A DNA stretch of 58,553 bases, filler included, from Platydemus manokwari (lineage: Eukaryota): the NCBI GenBank assembly GCA_037951405.1. It is 4 parts of 4 records of this genome, joined end to end, with 100 filler letters (N's around TTAATTAATTAA, not from the genome) between each part and the next. Parts side by side here need not be neighbours in the genome. Positions count along the whole stretch, not along the records: positions 1 to 10,488 come from JBBMOY011130107.1; 3 more parts are not named here. The stretch is one strand, 5' to 3'. Positions 5,341-49,835 of the stretch are shown here, piece by piece (the first letter of the stretch is position 1; each line of letters begins with the position of its first letter). The notes beneath the pieces were generated by a model. The model saw only the letters and a list, made by a program, of their open reading frames with translations. It was not told the origin of the DNA and did no database searches. The position numbers and the translations under genes were made by a program.

Positions 5341-5594
5341 TTAAAAGATTATTAGTAGTCAGTAAATGACTAGTTTAATCCATCAACCCCAATCCAAGAA
5401 ATCATTAACAATAAAACTCTCAATTTTTCAATCCTCCATACCCCACCTACCCCCGAAATTGCACATTTTGTAATCAATCAATTTAAAAAACAATATAAAG
5501 GGATTTAACTACCCATTTACGCACTACTTAATATTAAAAAATAGTCAAAAATATTCATAAAAAATAAAAGCTAATTAAAAAAATAAATTTAAAA

Positions 5595-5705
5595 ATGAAC
5601 GAAACCAAAACTGTATTTTACTGTGAAAGATGTAATAGATACTTTAAAACAAAAACCGCGAAAATAGCTCATGAAAAATCCAAGGAGCATAAAAACGAAG
5701 TGTAA
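5595..5705 (+). CDS. 36-aa micro-ORF consisting of one C2H2 (matrin/U1-type) zinc finger; probably a truncated TE/Polinton gene
   Basis: ATG 5595, TAA 5703-5705: MNETKTVFYCERCNRYFKTKTAKIAHEKSKEHKNEV. Pattern FYC-x2-C-x3-F-x8-H-x2-S-x2-H. Too short for the supplied ORF track. Confidence 0.55.
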   Translation: MNETKTVFYCERCNRYFKTKTAKIAHEKSKEHKNEV

Positions 5706-5756
5706 CGTCCACGATTGATAGATAGTATCTATAAAGTCAAAGTCAAGAACAAAAAT

Positions 5757-6010
5757 ACAAGTCCAAACTCACAAGTCCGAAACCATAATTCCGAATGAAA
5801 TAAAGTCCGAAATTACAATCCCGAACCCACAAGTCCGAAATCATAAATCTGAAACTATAAGTTTATCAAAATTTTTCAAAGTCCAAAAAAAGCAATTCAA
5901 AATCCAAAAACCACATTGTACAAAAAATTACAAGTTAAAATTTCACAAGTCCTAAAAGTCAAAATCAGATAAAAATAAGCCAAAGTCCGATAAATTGAAA
6001 GTCCGATTAA
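5757..6010. repeat. Imperfect ~14-bp tandem array (consensus AYAAGTCCGAAAYC), about 7 units plus dispersed AAGTCC(GA) copies
   Basis: Units acaagtccaaactc, acaagtccgaaacc, ataattccgaatga, aataaagtccgaaatt, acaatcccgaaccc, acaagtccgaaatc, ataaatctgaaact (5757-5856). Further aagtcc copies continue to ~6005. Confidence 0.75.
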
Positions 6011-6013
6011 AAG

Positions 6014-9000
6014 TTATTGAGCATCATCGTCCTCCCCCTCACTTGCTGAAAAAGATAAGTCCGGATGGAACTTACTTGCCCTTGGTATATTGACATTTCT
6101 TTTACCCGTATGAAACTGCCATTGGAGGAACGATGCGCTAATGTTTGATTTAATAAATTTCATTGCCAGTTTGTTGATTAGTTGTTTACCCAACCCGAGT
6201 TTTCTTAGTATTAAATCGTTAATCTTAACCCAAATGCCCAATACTCCAACTATAAAAGTATATAATTCCACCGTGAATTTGGGGAATTTTGTTTTTATAT
6301 CATTACGCAATTGCTCATACTTTGACAGATTTTTCTTATCTGTTCCATCGATTAACTTAGGCTCATCCATTGGGTACTTGATATCAATGAGCATAATTGT
6401 TGATTTATGCTCATTGATCATTTGTAAATCTACTCGTAGGTTGGAATCAACAAACTGGCTTTTTTCATCTATAAAAATTCTAAAGCCAGTGTTATATTCT
6501 ATAAAACGAGCGACTATATCCACAATCTCATTGTGCCTATATGTTTTAAAAGAACTTGATGGAGGGCACAAGGTAAAAATATGAGTTTGTGAATCTGTTT
6601 GATATAGGCACTTTCGTTACGCCATACCATTCATGAATTTCTTGTTGAGTGTTGATAGGGTGTTGGTCTTTGCTTTTTGAATGAAGTGGAACTCGGCAAT
6701 CGATAGATATCCATGAAAAACAATCTTGCTTCATAGTGGGCTAACTGTACCTAAAAAAGTATTATACCTCCCACTTCTAATTTGCTTTGTCCATTCAATT
6801 TGATAAGATTGAACGAAACACTTTCTCAACAACTTTGGTGCCTCCTTGAATTTCTTGGGCTCTATGATTCCGGAATGAAAAAAGACCCTATCTTCGACAT
6901 GTATGTTTTGGTCGACTCGGAGCATGATGGTTTCATTTATGTAGATAAATTGTATCTTAGTGTTTAACTTGTTTGCTGCATATTTTATGGACTCGCGGAC
7001 TTTGGGCCACCATGTTTTGCTTCTCTGAGTCTGGGTCATATGTGTGTTAATCCACTCCAGTGATTGTGATATGTTGCAAATGTCGGTGCATGTTTCTGTT
7101 TTCGCAGCCTGGCATAGAGAATGGATCGAAACTTGTCTTATCATTTCGTGCTTACTCGTTAGTAGTTAGAAGACATACATGATGGACTGCGTAGTGTAAT
7201 CCTCACACAAGTTTCTAAGCCCACACCCTCCGCTTGATTTGGACGCGTACTGCAGTATTTCGGAACTCCTAATATGTTTTTATATACTTTCTCATCATGA
7301 CATCCATCTCTAGCAGATGCGTGAATGTTATGTAGTAGTTTCTTAGATAAAAAGTGGATTTTGTTTGAAAAAAAAGTTCGAGGGCTCTTAGTTTTTGCCA
7401 CGGTAAAAGGATTGAATCGGTCAATTTTTGTAAAGCAAGTTGTAAGTCGTTAAACAGTCCCTCCGTTGAATTGTGTAACTTGAGACTAAAGTTAACTCCG
7501 AGATACCTGTAGTAGTCTTCTAGTTTTATTGTTGGAATCGTTTCATTGTTAACTTTGATCTTATCAAGGTGGGATCCTTTTCTTTCATTATGGACATAGC
7601 CAAATTTTACTGTCTTAAATTTGAAACCTAATATAGTGGCTAGGTTGGTGGCCTCGTTTATCATGTCTTGTATACTCTCTCCATTCCTCCAGATCAGTGC
7701 AAGTTCGTCTGCGTAAGCCAGAAACGATATCTTGTGATTCGCCAAGAGTAGCCCTCCTAACTTGTTATTCTCCAATTTGACCAAGATTGGGTTCATAGCA
7801 ATATTAAACAGCAGCATTGAGATAGAGCACCCTTGGCGGACTCCGCGCTTCATCTCGATTGGACTCGTTTCATAGTCGCCACATTTCAGTGTAGTTTTGC
7901 AGTTCCTATAAAGACTCTTTATAAACTTGGTGGAATTAGAGTCAAGACCCATGTGTTTCAAAAGTCCAATCACTGAAGGAAAGGCTTCCTCAATGTCCAT
8001 AAATGGAATATGGATGTCATCTCTTCCTTTCCTAGAATAAGGCTCAAGAAGAGTCCAGAGCAAAAAATTGTGTTCTGCACACCCGCTCGTAGGTCTCAGA
8101 CTCTTTTGTAATGGATGGATAAGATTATTTTCATCAGTCCAGGACCTGAGATGTTGGCACAAGATCGATGTAAGAATCTTGTAACAACAGTCAATTAACG
8201 CGATCGGCCTCCAGGACCCAACCTCATTATAATGCCCTTCCTTCATCGGTTTGGGAATCATAGTCGTGGAATATATTCGCCATTCCTCAGGAATTTCCAA
8301 TTCGTCAAGGCATTTATCAAATAATGTTTTAAACAATATACATTCTGGGTCTCCATAAATAATGTCTTTATATCCAATGTTGTTGCGTCATGGAGCCGTC
8401 GGGTCTTTTTGCCTGATCGTTTTGTATATTGTTTCAATGTCGATACGGAGAAGTTGGGGCCTCTATTTGTATATTTCTTGAGTTCACAAAATTTATTACA
8501 AGCCTTACTGCATGGTACTTGACATTCTGGTAGTACAAAAAGAGGTTATTGTTTCTTGGTGTAATGTTTCTCCAACTTCTCCCTCTTTGGCCATGAATCA
8601 GCATTTGTTGAGCGATTGATGATCTGGAATGCCGCAGACGGAGCGACATTGAAAAGGTTCCTAAGTTTCAAATCTGTTGAACCACTGTCGAGATCATTGG
8701 AAGCACTGCCTAGAAAGACTTGATTAGGTTGTTTAATCGGTGTCATGTATGTAATGTGCTTGCATATTTCTAGATACATTGTGTTTATGTCTGCTCCTTT
8801 TATGTTGGTGTTTATGTTTTGTACTGGAATTTTGCGTATCTCTTTTGTGTCTTTTGGTGTCTCTTGTGGTAAGCAAAGTAGTTGTTCGCCTCTCTTGATT
8901 TTCTTTTCGTGTTGCAAGTATACGACGTTTGCCTTTTCTTTTATCTTTGTGATATTTATGTTTTCGAGGGGTACTCTGTTGCATGTGTTTCTTATGTAGC

Positions 9001-10488
9001 CAAAGACTACAGGACCACTTTCACCGAAGTTTGATTGTAGGTGGCGAGTACAGTTGGTGTTGACTGGTTTGAGTTTTTCGTTTTTTCACAATAGTCGAGA
9101 TATGTTTGTGTTTGTGATATTGATGATGTTTTCTTTTTCTTCTGGCTATATATCACCTTCTGGGTCGAATATTTTAATTGTTTCGTTCGGTACGTGTATA
9201 ATGACCACAACCCGCTTCCTTGTTTGGAGCAGAAGAGAGCAGAAGATGATTTCTCTGTTGTCAAAATATTTAAATGATAAGAATGCTTTAATATCTTCTA
9301 TATTATCTAGGGCCAGTGCTCTGCCCAGAAAGGGTTCTAAAATAAAAAACTTTCTATATCTTATCTCATTTCTTTCATGTGCCTTTCTTAGAAGAGCAGG
9401 CAGTCATCATAAAAGTTGTTTTCTTGCTGTTGCTGTGTTTTTGTTTGGTTTCCCATGGGATCAATCAATTCCATTCATTCGTCTCGAAACCCAAGCATGA
9501 GGACCCAGTGAATGTTCCTAATGTTTATTGGTGTGATGAATGTCTTGCTAGTGTTCAATGTCGGAATGTATATGTTAGATTCCTCAATGTTTAAATTGAA
9601 TGTGATTATAGTTTCAGTGATGAATGAGCCTAGATAATATACTTCATGTTCTTGGATGTTGGCCTGTATGAATGTGTCTCGCTGTTCCCCAGAGAACCAG
9701 AGTGTATTGTCAGGCACTGAGGGGTCGTACCTTGAAGTGTTGATTCTAATGTTGGTGACCCTCTCAGTGTTACCCCATCAATCAAGATCGGCTGATTTGT
9801 TTGGAAGTGGGATGAATGAGTTAAGGATGTTGATGTCGAATCTGTTCTTCCTGCTTGCATTGATTTGTTTTCTGAGTGGACGTTCGGTGCTTGTTTTCCT
9901 ACACTGAACGTATACGTGGCTTTATAGAAGTGTTGCTTGAGAGTTGAAGGTCGAGAAGCATTCTTGAGATGTTGGAAGTATTTGTTCATCGCCCAAATAC
10001 TCGCAAGTAGTTTCGGTTTCTTCATTGACTTCTGGTGAATTTTTCATTCATTTGACCTCCTTTAATATATCAAATAACATGTTCTTGATCTCGTTTATGT
10101 CTGCTTCAAGTTTGCTTATTCGTTAGCTCTCGATGTGATCTTTGATTAGTAGTGGGTTGGCTTGTGTACTCTGTTCTTGTGAGATTTTTTTTGTGAAATG
10201 ATTTCTTGTTGATGTTTTTCTTGTGTGCCTTTTAGGGTCTTATATAATTCGACTGTCTTATCTGGAATAACTGTCTTGTTTATGCTTAATTCGGTGTCTT
10301 CTTGATGACTTTGTATTTAAGTTATCTGTGTCTGAGGCAATTGTTGAGCTTGAGTTTTGTTTCCTTTGTTATGTTTAGCACGGTTGGTCATTGTATCATT
10401 GGTTGCTCTTAGACCAATTACGCCTATGATTGCCTTCTTTAATTTTCTTATGCTTATGTTTAGATTTTCGCATTTCATTGGCTCAATC
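6014..10488 (-). mobile_element. RLE-type (R2 superfamily; NeSL/R5/Utopia-like) non-LTR retrotransposon with Ulp1-like domains, RT, CCHC knuckle and restriction-like endonuclease; decayed, 5' end cut by gap
   Basis: RT (7269-8336): WRPIAL, GCAEHNFLL, GVRQGCSIS..LFNI, AYADE, YRYLG. Knuckle KCLYQTDSQTHIFTLC (~6566-6613). REL (6014-6571): RHNEI, RVDL, IDIKYP, K.SKY..L, FIVGVLG. Ulp1-like FITPINIRNIHWVL..IDP (9440-9717). Several frameshifts and stops. Confidence 0.92.
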
Positions 10489-33276: not shown

Positions 33277-36200
33277 TTATTTTATATTTCGACACGATTG
33301 GTCATGGTCGTTTACTTCTAATTTTAGACCATCCAATTTAGAAGTTAAAAAATTAATATCAATTGATTGATGGTAGGAATTGGTTTTAAAATTTTTGAAT
33401 TTTCTTGAATCTATTTTCGTGTGATGAAGTTCAAGACTTGCACAAAGAATTGTAGAATTCATCGGTCCACCAAAGGACGATTTAATGGGATTAAAATCGA
33501 TTCGATTGAAATCATTTAATTGGATTTGTTCGGTTGATTTTGTCTTTCCAACGTTCTCATTACCAGTAGATAGTTTAATCCGATTTGTATTTTCGACAGA
33601 GATATTTCCATGGACCAGTGTTCGATCACGATTACAATGATTATTAATAATTGATGAGAAATTGGATAATTTTTCGATTTCAATGTCGGATAATATTTGA
33701 TTTACGATTTTTATTCTTTTATTATGATAATAATAATAATGATTATTATTATTAATGATAATAATATCAAAAAATGTATTTTCATGTTTACGTTTTAAGT
33801 TTTTGTTTATATATATCGATTTGTTAATAAGTTTTTCCCTTCGATTAGACAATGATATCGAATCGGAATTATTTCTGTTTTTCCTACACAGGTTTTTCAT
33901 CGTCTTCATTGAAGTGTCGCACTCATCTGATTTATTGACTATGTAATTCATAGTTATCATATCTTGAGTTTGAGAATGAACGGGAAAATTATGATTTTGA
34001 TTAATACCGATTTGATTGCCTTTGTTTTTTATACATTGTTCTACTTGTCTATTTCTCTCACTAACACTACCCGATTTACCCGTGTATGAATAAATAAAAA
34101 CTTGACATCTATCTTCAATAAATGGTTCTGGATTCTGATTTTTGTTGTTGAGTTTATTAGAATATTCGAATCGTTTGTTTTTCAAAATCATTTGAGGAAT
34201 GTTTAGACTTATTCGATCGATAGACATTGGGAAGTCTAATAAAATCAAACTTATCATATTCTGTATATTTTTTCTTGTTAAATCCAATCGAATTTGTAAA
34301 TTATGTTGTTGAAATAAATTGGAGACATGATCAGAAATACCATTTTTAGAAGCGTTCACAAATTGAGTATTTTTAAATAACGTATTCTGTTGTAAACAAA
34401 TCAACATCTTCTTTATTTGAAAAGGTTTCAGGGTGAAATTGTGAATCGGTAAATTTGAATGTTTTACAGAACGATTTGGTTTTGTTTCTGCCTGAGTAAT
34501 CATAAATGTGATGGATTTATTTATCTTTTTAATAACATTTTCTTCAAAACATTTCTTTTTCAAATCTCTAACAGTCATTGCTTTCGCTTGAATATGATTT
34601 TGTTCTTTATCGATAAGGTGTGTCAGTTCCAGATTGGTAGGTATTAATTGTTGGAGAAATGTAAACAAAGATTCCGATGCTGAGGGAATATCATCGTCAT
34701 TTATGATTATCATCGAATCATGGATCGGGGAAATTCGACGATTTCGACTTGATATCGCCAGAAAATCAATCAATTTATCCTTAACGATTGTCGTCAACAA
34801 CAGATGTATATTATCATTTATTAATCGATAAATATCAATATTAACGTTTTCTAAAACTCTCCTATGGAACGTTGTCAAGTTCCAAGTGCTCTTGCTCGTC
34901 ATTAATTTGTAACTTTTCGTAAATGTTGGAGACACGATTAGGTTGCTAATCGAATCAGAATTAATGAATCCATGTATTAATGAATTGAGTCGAGCAGTTG
35001 AATTGAAATTAATTTTTATATATTTGATGGGAATATTATTAACCAATGATTTGGGATGATTCTTACACTGTAATTCTTTAGGAAATTCTTTATCGTACGA
35101 AGATAGATGTTTCGATAAATAATTCCAAATCTCTTTATTCAATTCGCTACCGATTTCTGTGTTATCATATGACGAAGATTCTAAGAATTCCTTATTAATC
35201 AAATCTGATTCTGAAATAATAATATGATCAACTAAGAATCGATCATTAATAATTATTTTATTAATAAAATCAAATATTCTTCTTTTCGAAATGAAATTCG
35301 AAGAAAGATTTACTTTTGGTTTAATCAAGCTGAATGGAGTTTGATTGGCACTGGGAGTTGTGGTGTGAAGTAACGAGTAGTGTTTCAGTATATCAGTATT
35401 GTCATTCACTCTGGTAGACAGAGCCAAAGTTTTTCCAATATTTTTTCGATATTTTTCATTATGAGCAATAATTTGCTTATCGTTTCGTTTATTAAATGAT
35501 ATTCGACGTTTGTGAGCTTGAGACGATGCAAAATCTCTATCACAAAACATATTCCATATTTCGTTATCTAAATCGTTGTTCAAAATTGTATCGTCTTTTA
35601 TCGGTAGAAGTTTCCATAAATTATTTCCTTTTGATATTTCGGTTGCGGTGATCGAATGATGTGGTATTTCATTATTATTTTCTCGAACTATTTTTGTCAA
35701 GTGTTTGATTCTCACAAATTTATTGATATCATAGTTAATTAAACGATTCAAACGAATTTCATAGCTGATAATATTTCTATTATGTTGTTCATATAATAAT
35801 TTCTTGTAGTTTTCAAAATGGTTTTTACAAATGCTATTTATTGATTTCACTGTGAACATTTTTCTTTTCTTCAAACATTGGATAATACTTTTCAAATTAA
35901 ATAACATGATTTCCATGTTAGAATATTCATTTAATGGTGCTGGAATCATTTTGTGACTCGTCAACACCAACATTGATTCCTGGCTGTGTTTTTTCTCAAC
36001 TTGCTCGACAATTGCATTTGGTTGTGGATTAAAATCACAATTATCCATACGGCTATCAGAGGAACTTATTCCATTTGTTAATAAGATAGGATTTTGTTTT
36101 AATAGATAGAATTTCAGTTCCTCATTTAGTAAAGGCATTCTTTTAATTATGCTATGAGATTTACACGAGGAAAATTCCACTTGTATTTTAGCATTTGTTA

Positions 36201-39200
36201 TCTCCTTTTGTCTCGAATATATTGAAATTGTATCGAATTCTTTTATTTCCAAATAAATTAATAATTCATAACATTGTAATAGAAAACTCTCTGATTGATA
36301 ATTGATTTGTTTATGATTAGACTTTGAAAGAAATGAATGTTTATAATTTGATGGCATTATAAAACTTATAAAACTATCACGGATCTTCTTCTCTACAGTT
36401 TGATGAAACTTTATTTTATTGAAGCTCATTTGAATTTTGATTTTATTATCCGATTTTGTCAAAACATTTATCGCTTTGTCTTTCTCAACAATTGTACTGC
36501 AATGCAATGGATCGATCGAACAATCGTTCGACCAGATCTCAGAAGTCATCATAATGGGACAATTTGAAACTCGAATTCCAATATTTCTTTCGGTCATATC
36601 TTTTGTTATCACAAGTTTTACATTCTCCAATCGTTTGCCGTTTAATTTTTCGACTTTTAAAGAGGCCTCTTTACAATATTTATCGAATAGATAATTAGTA
36701 TTGCGATTCTTGATAAATCTCGATCTGGACTTTTGAGGCTGATCATTAAGTGGGGTATTTATTTTATTAATATTCCCTATATTGGATGTGTTTGTCAAAT
36801 CGTCATCATTTATCGAGTTGACTAACGATGAATAATGAAAATCATCAATTTCACGTAATTGGAGTTTAGTTTTAATCTTTGGATATCGTAAACATCTTAC
36901 AGTTTCGTAATCATGAGTTTTCAATTTATAGTTCTTGTGTAGTGTTCTTGAATGGTCGACCTGGGCTGTGTTATCACTTTCTTTCTTTCTATTGATGATT
37001 TTCGTATTATGAATTTTTCCACTTTTCAAAGGCAACTTGATGATTTCTTTGAATTCCGTTGAACGCAGAGATCGTATTGGTATCAGCTTATTACTAGTCG
37101 GTTGAAAAATAATCGTCGGAAAAATAGGAGAATGATGTAGTGGAGCATTGATGGAAACTTGAATTTTCGAATCAACTGGCTTCACTTTCAGGTTTTCTTT
37201 TAATTTAGGAACTTTTCGTAAAAGTTCTTCCAATAGATCTTTCTTTGTAATTTGGCCAGATTTCTGTGCTTGTTCGCAACGAGATGATTTAGAAGGTAAA
37301 TAGTTTTTCGATGATTTTAATGATCTTCTCGGTGAGTAGTTTCGATTTATTAAATGCTTTTTCGTCTTTTCGACTCGAATAGGTTTGTTTTCAATAATTT
37401 TGATTCTACCAAAGGCCTTGGGTTTCATATTTCGTTCATGTCTAACGAGTGTATTCTTATAGAATTCCTTATATTGTCGTCTAGCTGTCCTGTTATGAAT
37501 GTTTTTCTTGCATATTTTACATGCAATATCGTGTTTCATAGGTTCCATATGCATTTTATGAAATCTAGACATACATTTCTGTTCTTCGATTGCCTCGTTT
37601 TGAAATCGATTCATGAGAAATAACGTCCTTGAAACGCCATACATCTGCTCATTTTTATACTCTATTTCTTCGTCCTCATTTTTGATACATGGATGAAAGC
37701 TGAATTTTCGTCTACGGTTTGCTTTGTCTTTTAATTTTTTATTGTCTTCTATCTTTCGAATCTTCTGAATCCGGTTCTTATATTTTCTTATCTGAAATGT
37801 ACCTCGATAATTAAGCAATTCTTTAAGCTCTCTCTTTTTAAATTTGCATAATAAATCCGGATCTAATAAATCTTGAATGATATGCAATTCTTGTTTGAAA
37901 TAGGTTTTGTTTTCTTCTTCAATCACTCTAATGATTTCATCGGTATCAATTCCTGGATCTGATGAGTACGTACCAAAGAATCTGGAAGAGTGTATTATAC
38001 TGTTAGATCTTATCATAGTCGTAGCAATTGAACCTGAAAGAATAGCGTTTGCTTCCATAAATCTTTCGGATAAAATTCTTGGCCTGATACTCGATCTTAA
38101 AATAGTCGCAGTTTCATAGAATGGCTCTTTGCTATATTTACTAATGGATGATCGATAGACTTTATCCAAATCGAATTCTTCTTTCTCAAATATGCTGTCA
38201 TAGAATACTTCTTCATCCTTTATTTCTTCGAAATTTATCGATTCATCTGATCCACTATGAGTAACAAGACATTTTGTTTTATCACAAAACTTTTCACTGA
38301 ATTCCGAATATTTGGAATCATCATACTCGTCTTCGGTTCTAAATGATGATGGTTTAATGACATCATTATCTTCAGCTGCCTCAGTGCTATTATAAGCCAA
38401 TTTGCTTTTCAAAATTTTTATGAAATTTTCTTCTTTTTCCACTGTAGACTGATTGGTTAATAAGGCTTTTATACTACCTATAGAAAACATTTCCTCATGC
38501 ATGCTTGCGTGAACTCGTCGATTATTATCTATTTGACTATCTGAACGGGTAGTTTCAGTGACATTTTCAAATAAATGATTGACTGGGCGACCATCTTCAT
38601 GGGTTTCTGTTGTTTCACTTTCTTTAGTCAAAATTTTCTTTCGAAAATTTATTTTTCGTTGCAAAGGCTTAGTTACTAGGCTATCCACGAATTCTACCAA
38701 TACCCCTAATAATGTACCAGTTGAAGATTGAGTCGATAATCTTTCATCTTTATCTAATACTTGTCGTTTCTTTAGTAAATGCGATAATTCATGATTTTTT
38801 AAATGGTGATGCACTGCTAAATCAGTGGAAGAAAGAACATTATTGCCGAACGATATAATTTTTCTTACTCCATCTTCAAGTTTACTTGATTTATATGATT
38901 CAGAATAAGTAGTTATTGATTTAGTTTGAGACAAGTACATCTCAACTATTTGATCATAGAAAAACCTTTCCGATTCCTGAAGTTGGTATATAATTTTGAT
39001 ATCATTTTCTTTCAAAGCTTGGTCAACGACTTCCATTATATGACTTATGGTAACCATCCAATCTGATGGCACATGTACCCACATACCATTTGGTAGTAAA
39101 GGACACTTTTTAAAGGTACTGTTTTTTATTCCATAAATGCTTCTTCTTCCTCTCTGGCTTGTAGTAACGTTCAAATATTCTTCCTTGTAATGGGGGTTAT

Positions 39201-39393
39201 CCACGGAGTTAAGGTTAAATTTGCTGACCGAATAAACTGACGATCTCTTATCAGATATTAAGCTTGCTCTAGGTTGAAACAACTGAGATCGTAAAATAAT
39301 TTCCTCATTCAATTGTTCTTTATCGGATTGAACAATTTTTTCAGGTTCAGTCGATTCATTTTCCGACAAACCATTCGATTCTACATTATTCAT
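33277..39393 (-). CDS. Uninterrupted 2038-aa ORF (from first ATG) of unknown function; K/N/S/I-rich
   Basis: 6.1 kb with no stop codon in AT-rich DNA. First ATG at 39393 (the ORF track starts at a TTG at 39426). Possible splice acceptors (tatacag, aatcag) lie just upstream. No TE or enzyme motifs recognised. Confidence 0.85.
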   Translation of the reverse strand: MNNVESNGLSENESTEPEKIVQSDKEQLNEEIILRSQLFQPRASLISDKRSSVYSVSKFNLNSVDNPHYKEEYLNVTTSQRGRRSIYGIKNSTFKKCPLLPNGMWVHVPSDWMVTISHIMEVVDQALKENDIKIIYQLQESERFFYDQIVEMYLSQTKSITTYSESYKSSKLEDGVRKIISFGNNVLSSTDLAVHHHLKNHELSHLLKKRQVLDKDERLSTQSSTGTLLGVLVEFVDSLVTKPLQRKINFRKKILTKESETTETHEDGRPVNHLFENVTETTRSDSQIDNNRRVHASMHEEMFSIGSIKALLTNQSTVEKEENFIKILKSKLAYNSTEAAEDNDVIKPSSFRTEDEYDDSKYSEFSEKFCDKTKCLVTHSGSDESINFEEIKDEEVFYDSIFEKEEFDLDKVYRSSISKYSKEPFYETATILRSSIRPRILSERFMEANAILSGSIATTMIRSNSIIHSSRFFGTYSSDPGIDTDEIIRVIEEENKTYFKQELHIIQDLLDPDLLCKFKKRELKELLNYRGTFQIRKYKNRIQKIRKIEDNKKLKDKANRRRKFSFHPCIKNEDEEIEYKNEQMYGVSRTLFLMNRFQNEAIEEQKCMSRFHKMHMEPMKHDIACKICKKNIHNRTARRQYKEFYKNTLVRHERNMKPKAFGRIKIIENKPIRVEKTKKHLINRNYSPRRSLKSSKNYLPSKSSRCEQAQKSGQITKKDLLEELLRKVPKLKENLKVKPVDSKIQVSINAPLHHSPIFPTIIFQPTSNKLIPIRSLRSTEFKEIIKLPLKSGKIHNTKIINRKKESDNTAQVDHSRTLHKNYKLKTHDYETVRCLRYPKIKTKLQLREIDDFHYSSLVNSINDDDLTNTSNIGNINKINTPLNDQPQKSRSRFIKNRNTNYLFDKYCKEASLKVEKLNGKRLENVKLVITKDMTERNIGIRVSNCPIMMTSEIWSNDCSIDPLHCSTIVEKDKAINVLTKSDNKIKIQMSFNKIKFHQTVEKKIRDSFISFIMPSNYKHSFLSKSNHKQINYQSESFLLQCYELLIYLEIKEFDTISIYSRQKEITNAKIQVEFSSCKSHSIIKRMPLLNEELKFYLLKQNPILLTNGISSSDSRMDNCDFNPQPNAIVEQVEKKHSQESMLVLTSHKMIPAPLNEYSNMEIMLFNLKSIIQCLKKRKMFTVKSINSICKNHFENYKKLLYEQHNRNIISYEIRLNRLINYDINKFVRIKHLTKIVRENNNEIPHHSITATEISKGNNLWKLLPIKDDTILNNDLDNEIWNMFCDRDFASSQAHKRRISFNKRNDKQIIAHNEKYRKNIGKTLALSTRVNDNTDILKHYSLLHTTTPSANQTPFSLIKPKVNLSSNFISKRRIFDFINKIIINDRFLVDHIIISESDLINKEFLESSSYDNTEIGSELNKEIWNYLSKHLSSYDKEFPKELQCKNHPKSLVNNIPIKYIKINFNSTARLNSLIHGFINSDSISNLIVSPTFTKSYKLMTSKSTWNLTTFHRRVLENVNIDIYRLINDNIHLLLTTIVKDKLIDFLAISSRNRRISPIHDSMIIINDDDIPSASESLFTFLQQLIPTNLELTHLIDKEQNHIQAKAMTVRDLKKKCFEENVIKKINKSITFMITQAETKPNRSVKHSNLPIHNFTLKPFQIKKMLICLQQNTLFKNTQFVNASKNGISDHVSNLFQQHNLQIRLDLTRKNIQNMISLILLDFPMSIDRISLNIPQMILKNKRFEYSNKLNNKNQNPEPFIEDRCQVFIYSYTGKSGSVSERNRQVEQCIKNKGNQIGINQNHNFPVHSQTQDMITMNYIVNKSDECDTSMKTMKNLCRKNRNNSDSISLSNRREKLINKSIYINKNLKRKHENTFFDIIIINNNNHYYYYHNKRIKIVNQILSDIEIEKLSNFSSIINNHCNRDRTLVHGNISVENTNRIKLSTGNENVGKTKSTEQIQLNDFNRIDFNPIKSSFGGPMNSTILCASLELHHTKIDSRKFKNFKTNSYHQSIDINFLTSKLDGLKLEVNDHDQSCRNIK

Positions 39394-39984
39394 GACCTGA
39401 TTGATACCTGTATACAGATAATTCAATTTTCAATTTAAATATCTACAGCATCTAGTCTGATAATTTATTGATTGTTAATCTCATATCAATAAATATAAAT
39501 AATCCAAATAGATTAACAAATAAAACCCCCTAGGATCTTGAAATTTATCTAAATGAAAATTATCTTTAATCTTAAATTAGAAAAAGGGTCTTCTGAATTA
39601 ATTTTAGTGCAATTATTTGTCTTGTTTTATTTTACTTCAAAATTTATTTAAAATAATATTTTGATTTATATTTTAAGTTGAAATTCAACTTTAGATGAAA
39701 AAGACCAAAGATAGCGAAATTATATTAGAAAATAAACACAATTTAATCTCGATTCAACGTTTTAAATATCAAATAATAATTTAATTTTTATATTTATCTT
39801 ATAATGTTTACCTCTAGTATTGTCACATCTCGAAATAGACTGGAGAAGATATTAAGAAATTTTATATAACAATAAATTTTAAATATTTAATTTCGTTTTT
39901 GATTTTTTAATTATTTTTTGAAAGTTGATCCATTCAGTGATATTTCACATTTTATGACGTCGAATAGGAACTAGATAGAATTGC

Positions 39985-47962: not shown

Positions 47963-49835
47963 ATGGAAAAAGATTTGATAATGGATAAAATGTTAGTGAT
48001 GTTCTCTATTTATTTTATTATCGAAATTTATTATCAAGGAAACGGAAGCGGAAATCTGCTAATGAAGGTGGAAAGTAATGTATTTATTTTATTTGAGTAT
48101 AAATTCTAAGTTGTACCATTAGTACTGAAAATAAATACACTTCCAATATGATACTGAAAAGTCCATTTGTATCTAATTCTTTAAGGAATTTACAAAATAA
48201 TAAAGGTAATATTGTTTTTATAAATTAGTTTGTAGTTATTTAAATAGTACCAAATCTAATTGTTTAATTTCACATTGTCCTTGTCATTAATATTAATCAC
48301 AATTTTACTTTTAAAGAGTCTTAATAAAATAAAGAATAACATTTTTTAATAGTTATGTTTGGAAAATATTAGCCTGAGTATTATTTTCTTATATAGAAAT
48401 ATTTGATACTTTGAGTGATGTATCAACGGACGATTCGGACATTCAAATAACCCATGAATCGAGAAATAATTCTCCAAGTACGAGCAAAGTCTCCACAAAA
48501 ACCGAAAATATGAAAAATAAGACAGTTATAAATTTAGATAGCAATAGTGATACCGAAATTGTAAATTTTGCTCCCAATAAATGCATCGATTATTTAACTA
48601 TGCCACCAAATTGTGAAATTTTGCAAGAAATTGATTATTTAAAATTTGATAGTTACGTTTCACAAGCTGTTAATCAGTCTAGTTCTTCATTTTCTAGCAG
48701 CTCGTCCGATTCTGAACACGACATTATTGAATTAGATAACGATTTATCTTTTGTTATAGATGGTGAATCGTCTATTGATCTCACTGAAACCAGTATTTCC
48801 AAGTAAAATGAATAAGATAGAAATACCATTTAATTAACCTTTCCATTCCATAGGGACAATGATGTTTCGATAACAAAAAGTGAGTTTGGTTAATATTGAT
48901 TTGAATCCGTTGGATAAACAAATTATTTTTTCATAGGTGACAAACCAAAAAATAAAAGGAAAAGAAAATCACAAAAGTGGATTTTATTATAAAAAAATGA
49001 TTTGTATATATTTTCATTGATAAATCCATTATTAGGCGATTTCCAAACAATCCTGAATTGCAGGCCGATAATCGCATGTTTAAATATTGGTCACAGCGAT
49101 ATGATTTATTTGAGAGATTTGATATGGGCATCAAGCTTGACAAAGGTTTTCTTTGCTTGAAATTTGCTATCTAATATTGTGAGTCTATAGAATCATGGTA
49201 TAGCGTTACTGCTGAATATATAGCCAGAGAGCAGGCTAGCTTGTGCAATGAATCGGACACGGTTCTCGATGGATTCTGCGGAGCAGGAGGCAACACAATT
49301 CAATTTGCTTATAAATGTCAAAAAGGTTTGCTCAATGATGTTTGAAGGGTTATTGTTCATGATTTATATCATATATTCAGTATTGGCAATCGATATTGAC
49401 CCTGTTAAAATTGAATTAACAAAGCATAATTTAAACGTCTATGGTGTGGAAATGGCAAAAGTGTCCATTATGAAAGATGATTTTTATTCCTTTGCCAATC
49501 ATTATCGATTATCAAATAATCAATCAAGCGTGATATCGTTACCGAATATTGATGTCGTGTTTTTGTCGCCACCGTGGGGAGGTCAAAATTATTTGATGGA
49601 CAATGGTGATTGTGGTGTGACTGATACGATTAATATCGATAAATTGATGAGTACGGCTCGAATCTTTCAACCGAAAACCATTATGCTTTATTTGCCACGC
49701 AACAGTGATCATGATCAATTAAACCGTTATTTATTACCAAATGAAACCATTGAAATCATTCAACATGAATCTCGTTATAAAAAAGTCAATAATAAAAAAG
49801 TGAAAGCTATCACTGTTGTTTATAGATGTAAATAA
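47963..49835 (+). CDS. TGS1: Trimethylguanosine synthase (RNA cap guanine-N2 methyltransferase), 9 exons
   Basis: In-phase GT-AG model: 47963-47991, 48039-48074, 48111-48205, 48397-48802, 48854-48879, 48937-48976, 49036-49145, 49191-49325, 49381-49835. Motifs [52 protein letters not shown] and DVVFLSPPWGG. The 5' exons are inferred from splice phase only. Confidence 0.95.

Follow-up and report, generated by a model that had tools for sequence, protein, structure and literature searches.

A Ulp1-type protease and its inactive paralogue in a family of RLE retrotransposons of Platydemus manokwari, with a predicted readthrough hairpin and a candidate Gly-Gly processing site

Introduction

Why would a retrotransposon carry a protease fold twice, side by side in front of its reverse transcriptase (RT), if the second copy has lost its catalytic Cys and His? 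The question is raised by a decayed retrotransposon without long terminal repeats (a non-LTR element) of the restriction-like endonuclease (RLE) type, found on the minus strand between the contig end at 10488 and about 5704 of a 58,553-nucleotide stretch of Platydemus manokwari DNA (assembly GCA_037951405.1; four parts joined by filler letters, called the window below). An initial annotation, made by manual translation, had read two tandem Ulp1/C48 domains in this element, the second an apparent pseudo-protease, and the translations that it quoted all lie on the minus strand at the places given for them. The RT of the element is followed by a Cys-His knuckle and a restriction-like endonuclease, the arrangement that defines the R2 group of RLE elements, and among PDB structures the RT of a sister copy is closest to R2 proteins (E 1.7e-33). 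Here we describe the family to which this copy belongs: a first open reading frame (ORF1) is followed by an in-frame UGA, a complete Ulp1-type protease (domain 1), a linker with a conserved Gly-Gly, a pseudo-protease (domain 2) that goes back to one old duplication, the RT and the RLE.

Conservation of the two domains

Both domains of the window copy (Table 1) carry stops and a frameshift, and this copy is incapable of activity. The states of the domains were read from the family in this genome, where a protein search returned 135 matches of 29-100% identity; 60 of the divergent ones were fetched and 19 duplicate loci were dropped. Residues were counted in hits above 0.9 bits per residue only, among which a few off-frame rows remain, and the subfamilies compared are about 40% identical. 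Copies without the deletion described below have both domains; a single domain in such copies would have spoken against the initial annotation.

Domain 1 is catalytically complete in the family, with a His-Asp-Cys triad and an oxyanion Gln on an Ulp1 fold (His in 47/53 rows, Asp in 50/53, Gln in 46/52 and Cys in 47/52). It matches Pfam C48 at E<=1 in 20 of 28 rows (best 1.3e-5), and its AlphaFold2 model has a pLDDT of 90. The window copy is the incomplete one. When its own genome was searched at the DNA level (911 Mb, a fragmented assembly), 57 matches were found to break at window position 9447/9446, and each of the 13 other copies spanning this point holds 253-279 extra bases there, exactly 279 in five of them; the extra bases encode the QxNxxDCG segment, the helices at the end of domain 1 and the greater part of the linker. 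Loose ends at 9447 were seen in six contigs of run X1, which is possibly the source of the assembly and was not treated as independent. The suspicion that domain 1 had lost QxNxxDCG through a deletion is thus borne out, and the deletion is private to this copy.

Domain 2 carries the motif [KR]-[KQR]-W ... DP ... QxxFG[ED]SG. At the site of the catalytic His, 76 rows have Lys (38), Gln (17), Arg (9) and His in a single case, and at the Cys site Ser is found in 41 and Cys in one of 58 rows, while Asp is kept in 62/75 and the oxyanion Gln in 43/54. The Lys-Arg and Glu-Ser-Gly that the initial annotation had noted in place of His-Trp and Asp-Cys-Gly hold for the family as far as the loss of His and Cys is concerned; the Arg does not, the family state being Lys-Trp. 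It results from a copy-specific Trp to Arg change, with Arg in one of 26 locus rows and TGG in 19 (three rows are duplicate contigs), and in run X1 the Trp base has a depth of 2092 out of 2118.

The fold of domain 2 is nevertheless that of a C48 protease, as had been supposed. Its Pfam C48 match lies above the cut-off (E 7.9e-8), 20/33 rows match at E<=1, and the domain aligns end to end with its own domain 1 (hhalign 97%, E 7e-11). The alignment previously made by eye with the C48 domain of another element of the window, at 24.4 kb, is in register but weak (hhalign probability 1.4%, E 0.038). No C48 was found when the PDB was searched at the sequence level with the domain 2 profile. When the tandem was modelled with AlphaFold (mean pLDDT 77, linker below 50), domain 2 superposed on SENP5 with Z 18.0 and a root-mean-square deviation of 2.6 A over 162 aligned residues; SENP5 and Ulp1 are its best structural matches, at 10-18% identity to SENPs.

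The two domains also differ at the sites equivalent to Ulp1 W448 and D451. In domain 1 the W-x-x-D motif of Ulp1 and NeSL proteases still begins with its Trp in 35/43 rows, and domain 2 has lost this Trp: none of 75 rows has Trp at the site equivalent to Ulp1 W448 (Leu, Tyr, Ile or Phe in 71/75). The Trp of this motif roofs the Gly-Gly tunnel. At the D451-equivalent site the states are reversed, with Glu or Asp in 62 of about 75 rows of domain 2 and Gly in 38 of about 45 rows of domain 1.

Purifying selection acts on both domains. Among pairs with a proportion of synonymous differences (pS) above 0.15, which are not independent of each other, the median ratio of non-synonymous to synonymous change (dN/dS) was 0.33-0.47 for domain 2, similar to domain 1 (0.28-0.47) and the RT (0.37-0.65). 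In the closest pairs (pS<0.15) it was near 0.8, as decay would give. These results support the idea of an enzyme beside a conserved dead paralogue: domain 1 keeps its triad, and domain 2 its fold without His or Cys.

Relatives and origin of the pair

When 1.84 billion proteins were searched with a profile, 70 relatives were found at E<=0.001, and the ten of these that were looked up came from ENA, JGI and Logan assemblies; a word-index search with domain 2 among longer proteins gave no match, where the profile search found the 70. In long relatives an intact domain 1 is followed by one or two degenerate C48-like domains, with an RT behind them. In the database rows of domain 2 Cys is found in 0/12; most have Ser, two keep His together with Ser, and three have diverged beyond reading. 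The oxyanion Gln is gone in most of them, and the His site is otherwise Tyr, Arg or Lys.

A tree of 59 domain rows, drawn with midpoint rooting and containing several long branches, splits all 27 domain 1 rows from all 31 rows of domains 2 and 3 with a support of 96/99. This supports one old duplication, followed by loss of the nucleophile and then long conservation, as the simplest account of the sequences.

Some relatives depart from the common plan. P0028, P0030 and P0047 have an intact C48-like domain and two degenerate ones, and the third of these domains carries a conserved HxxxGSGxFSNxLxC-type motif that also occurs in P0033. The second domain of P0008 and P0072 keeps His-Trp and Asp, with Ser replacing Cys. 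Relative P0025 is a single frame of 2421 amino acids, with the protease internal and no stop before it.

The UGA codon and the predicted hairpin

An in-frame stop lies about 14-22 codons before domain 1 and recurs in distant subfamilies. The codon at this site in 54 rows is TGA in 44, TTA in 5, TAA in 2, and TGG, CTA and TGT in one each, and it is followed by TGG in 43; the loci were not chosen for the stop, and one of them appears twice. By comparison, four true Trp codons are TGA in 1-4 of 43-76 rows. A 20-nucleotide pattern of this cassette has 37 exact matches in the genome and its reversed control none. The UGA is in frame with both domain 1 and ORF1, which in the family extends over some 360 or more codons (locus L134 has one stop in its last 300 codons, and L012 has one stop) and has no Pfam match. 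A second apparent stop in ORF1 (EVK*MK) was set aside as decay, the site being Ser or Ala in most other covering copies. The first in-frame Met after the UGA falls inside domain 1 in 18/18 rows; of 16 rows with a locatable catalytic His, 13 have this Met 3' of it. The frame is kept across the stop despite changes of 6-12 nucleotides in the length of the following loop.

That loop belongs to a plausible, predicted hairpin, in which a 10-base arm begins 7 nucleotides after the UGA and its complement follows some 35-50 bases on. Over 32 sequences 86.7% of the cells are paired, versus 26-46% when slid; 4/10 pairs show two-sided change, and the covariation score was reached by 0/500 shuffles. Similar cassettes direct readthrough in furoviruses, where UGA-UGG and a 7-nucleotide spacer precede a stem-loop (PMC3159437). 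From these sequence features we consider it probable that ribosomes read through the UGA.

Several points weigh against readthrough. The profile used for the stop census included the stop column. As to the hairpin, the count of two-sided pairs was reached by 101/500 shuffles, which ignore relatedness; it was tested on the sequences from which it was read, and its arms encode conserved residues; RNAalifold gave no consensus structure, and only 8/32 single sequences fold at z<-2. In many database relatives, seen as proteins, the sequence starts with a Met directly ahead of domain 1, and the stop is known from this genome alone. Finally, the UGA of Tca2 with its predicted 3' structure alone directed no readthrough in yeast reporters (PMC2194720).

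Other accounts of the stop were considered. Decay of a CpG or a Trp codon was rejected, with 0 CGA and one TGG in 54 rows; reassignment of TGA in the host is not supported by one host frame of 2050 codons, which has 7 TGG and no TGA; and stop-start reinitiation at UGAUG would enter the wrong frame and yield 2-4 residues in 16/18 rows. A search of Rfam returned one chance-level hit. Two further observations were made at this junction. TTA is found in L045, L014, L072, L096 and L099, which belong to different subfamilies, by decay or in lineages that have lost the stop; and five loci (L039, L042, L066, L081 and L086) appear to be 5' truncated near the 3' arm of the hairpin, as a pause of the RT would give.

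The Gly-Gly motif of the linker

The linker after domain 1 is about 28 residues long and cannot be aligned among subfamilies except for a hydrophobic residue followed by Gly-Gly, sometimes Gly-Gly-Gly. Gly-Gly is present in 39/71 linker rows (55 have GG or GxG; the rows include near-copies and some truncated flanks) versus 7/299 control windows. It is also found in 8/9 long database relatives, the ninth having GSG, and there are only 1-6 such sites per protein. The motif escaped the initial annotation because the window copy has deleted it.

Clan CE enzymes cleave SUMO (small ubiquitin-like modifier) after Gly-Gly (PMC3216068), and clan CE proteases cut African swine fever virus (ASFV) and adenovirus precursors at Gly-Gly-Xaa (PMC4584293). 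By its place and conservation the motif appears to offer domain 1 an internal substrate, and we think it somewhat likelier than otherwise that domain 1 cuts there, in cis or in trans. On the other side, GG is replaced by MG[PQVL] in one subfamily and by GEG or GDG in several, the partial relatives P0003 and P0012 lack GG, and the Gly-Gly tail was disordered, not docked, in both AlphaFold models (the tandem, and domain 1 with the linker), which decides nothing about cleavage.

A possible scheme and its alternatives

These features can be joined in one scheme. Most ribosomes would stop after ORF1, and a minority, helped by the predicted hairpin, would read the UGA and produce an ORF1-protease-pseudoprotease-RT-RLE fusion. 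Domain 1 would then cut the fusion after Gly-Gly and free pseudoprotease-RT-RLE, an RT-endonuclease with the pseudo-protease for its N-terminal module. We regard the complete scheme, with UGA readthrough, the Gly-Gly cut and the pseudo-protease as a module of RT-RLE, as evenly balanced between right and wrong. That domain 2 serves in binding or as a scaffold is very probable; its partner may be a ubiquitin-like tag, proteins encoded by the element itself, or nucleic acid. R2 proteins have an N-terminal nucleic-acid-binding domain at the position where domain 2 sits. More broadly, and more tentatively, a non-LTR lineage may have reached the retroviral gag-stop-pro-pol plan independently: the UGA hairpin would set the ratio of ORF1 to RT, a captured SUMO-protease fold would mature the polyprotein at a Gly-Gly like that of the ubiquitin tail, and its Cys to Ser copy would serve as a targeting or SUMO-trapping domain on the RT-endonuclease. 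We lean slightly against this wider proposal as a whole.

That domain 2 is a decayed duplicate, and the stop the product of decay after insertion, could be argued from the damage in every copy examined and from the high dN/dS of the closest pairs, but this explanation is already refuted by the lower dN/dS between lineages, the retained fold, and the recurrence of this Ser in other data sets and of the TGA across distant subfamilies. Nor is domain 2 at all likely to be an active serine enzyme, with a Ser-Lys dyad or, in some relatives, Ser-His-Asp. Ser is near-universal at the nucleophile site, a Lys or Arg stands before the His site in 68/75 copies, and P0008 and P0072 keep His-Trp and Asp beside the Ser; yet the His site itself varies among Lys, Gln and Arg here, on which ground we rejected a Ser-Lys dyad at that site, and is Tyr, Arg or Lys in relatives, the oxyanion Gln is missing from most database relatives, and Cys to Ser is the standard inactivating change of this fold (PMC3216068; title of PDB entry 2g4d). 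The initial annotation had suggested that enzyme and dead paralogue could form an anti-silencing module. In such a pair domain 2 would be a Cys to Ser trap on SUMO- or ubiquitin-tagged host proteins from which domain 1 removes the tag, the Gly-Gly being a hinge or secondary site, and the pair can go together with readthrough and self-cleavage. The laboratory trap Ulp1-C580S binds SUMO conjugates and needs D451 to do so (PMC3216068), and domain 2 has both the Ser and, mostly, an acidic residue at the D451-equivalent site, besides structural matches that are led by SENP5 and Ulp1. Against it, no Trp stands at the W448-equivalent site of domain 2, and in this genome the D451-equivalent residue of domain 1 is Gly; domain 2 has a low identity to SENPs, and the same fold also covers NEDD8, ubiquitin and viral polyprotein proteases; and a plain hinge would not require GG at one spot in linkers that are otherwise unrelated. 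We hold this pair to be possible but doubtful.

Readthrough, in turn, has to be weighed against expression of the downstream frame by other means: an internal promoter, splicing or trans-splicing, initiation at a codon other than AUG, or a UGA changed by A-to-I editing, with the hairpin serving that purpose or RNA packaging. Tca2 provides a precedent for non-canonical bypass (PMC2194720), several relatives begin with a Met before domain 1, and the stop site holds a sense codon in 7/54 rows (5 TTA, 1 CTA, 1 TGT) and TGG in one more. However, an in-frame AUG before domain 1 was present in 0/18 rows, an AG acceptor after the stop common to the subfamilies was not found, and the frame is maintained over the stop in spite of the changes in loop length. 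We therefore consider expression without readthrough unlikely.

Features of the window

The features of the window copy are collected in Table 1. The true 3' end of the element is absent from this copy, which is interrupted at about 5704; window 5500-5704 and its genome matches belong to a separate multi-copy repeat, which meets the 3' untranslated region (UTR) at a sharp junction.

Table 1. Positions of the element's features in the window
Feature	Position	Strand	Remarks
ORF1 remnant	9781..10488	-	low-complexity, T/Q/N/K-rich; 5' side truncated by the contig end
In-frame UGA followed by UGG, between ORF1 and protease	9778..9780	-	TGA in 44/54 aligned rows
Predicted readthrough hairpin	9714..9770	-	5' arm 9770-9761, 3' arm 9724-9714; loop length differs among copies
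Domain 1, Ulp1/C48 protease	9447..9714	-	truncated in this copy; His-Trp at 9510, Asp at 9462
Copy-specific deletion of about 279 nt	9446..9447	-	removes the QxNxxDCG helix and the Gly-Gly linker motif
Domain 2, C48 pseudo-protease	8927..9423	-	Lys-Arg 9217, Asp 9166, Gln..Glu-Ser-Gly 9037-9014
Reverse transcriptase, open frame	7272..8387	-	RVT_1 at residues 44-299, E 3.4e-22
Cys-His knuckle and restriction-like endonuclease	6017..6616	-	match to R2 protein C-terminus, E 1.6e-7; motifs
3' UTR, degenerate 14/44-bp tandem repeats	5704..6016	-	interrupted by another repeat at about 5704

Elsewhere in the window, a second, unrelated decayed RLE element (24449-27400, plus strand) has an RT and just one C48 domain, which is intact (Pfam E 9e-4); no second domain or Gly-Gly was seen in its translation, and it forms a long branch among the domain 1 rows. 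A Lys/Asn/Ser/Ile-rich open frame of 2050 codons without a Pfam match occupies 33280-39429 (minus strand), a frame at 49224-49832 (plus) matches RNA cap guanine-N2 methyltransferase (Methyltransf_15, E 2e-21), and a decayed stretch at 22800-24000 (plus) resembles, by eye, a remnant of the RNase H and integrase of an LTR retrotransposon. The genome also has 111 ubiquitin/SUMO-like matches besides ordinary polyubiquitin; in contigs C1195876, C1236653, C1783505, C833313, C844200, C1309394 and C321558 divergent units of this kind stand in tandem at a spacing of about 280 bp, and every unit has a short frame to itself.

Comparison with known systems

In the full-text literature, mostly judged by title and start of abstract and with subscription papers and Repbase outside its scope, we found no description of tandem or dead Ulp1 domains, of Gly-Gly processing or of readthrough in an RLE element. 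Among the closest systems are nematode NeSL elements and Utopia-1_TSP, RLE non-LTR elements with an Ulp1-like cysteine protease N-terminal to the RT (PMC4640811, Kojima and Jurka 2015), and the family thus has the feature of some NeSL-clade members. Domain 1 shares the W..D, HW, D and Q..CG motifs with NeSL proteases (S5 Fig of the same paper). Unlike this family, the elements are described there, in the part that concerns us, with one protease, and neither a pseudo-protease nor a Gly-Gly linker nor a stop for readthrough appears. New in this family are the Gly-Gly site and the cassette of UGA and predicted hairpin. The same paper names a flatworm lineage, R5/LIN, also of RLE type and with several families co-existing in one genome, which is a possible home for this family. 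In the copies examined no N-terminal zinc fingers were seen, a target site was not found and true 3' ends were not reached.

The predicted cassette resembles those of furoviruses, alphaviruses and gammaretroviral gag-pol, which combine a UGA, a G-rich spacer of 7-9 nucleotides, a stem of 10-12 bp, a variable loop and a polymerase downstream, and UGA-UGG also occurs in one furovirus (PMC3159437). In contrast to these, the predicted cassette lies in a non-LTR retrotransposon; it is a compact candidate readthrough signal in an element class where none was found described.

ASFV pS273R, adenain and poxvirus I7 have the same fold as the family's domains (Z 12.3 for pS273R), but they are free-standing and cut structural precursors (PMC4584293, PMC10318531), whereas here enzyme and putative site are in one polyprotein, beside a dead paralogue. 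The Ulp1-like domains of NeSL-type retrotransposons have so far been noted without a known substrate, and a Gly-Gly directly behind the enzyme offers a way to tell maturation proteases from anti-host deSUMOylases.

Domain 2, finally, has the fold and the Cys to Ser change of the yeast Ulp1 and human SENP trap mutants (PMC3216068; PDB 2g4d, 5aek), from which it differs in being natural, in usually having lost the His too and in the missing W448-equivalent Trp. A natural, selected Cys to Ser version of the Ulp1 fold on an RT-RLE protein could reveal a new way to find chromatin or to evade silencing.

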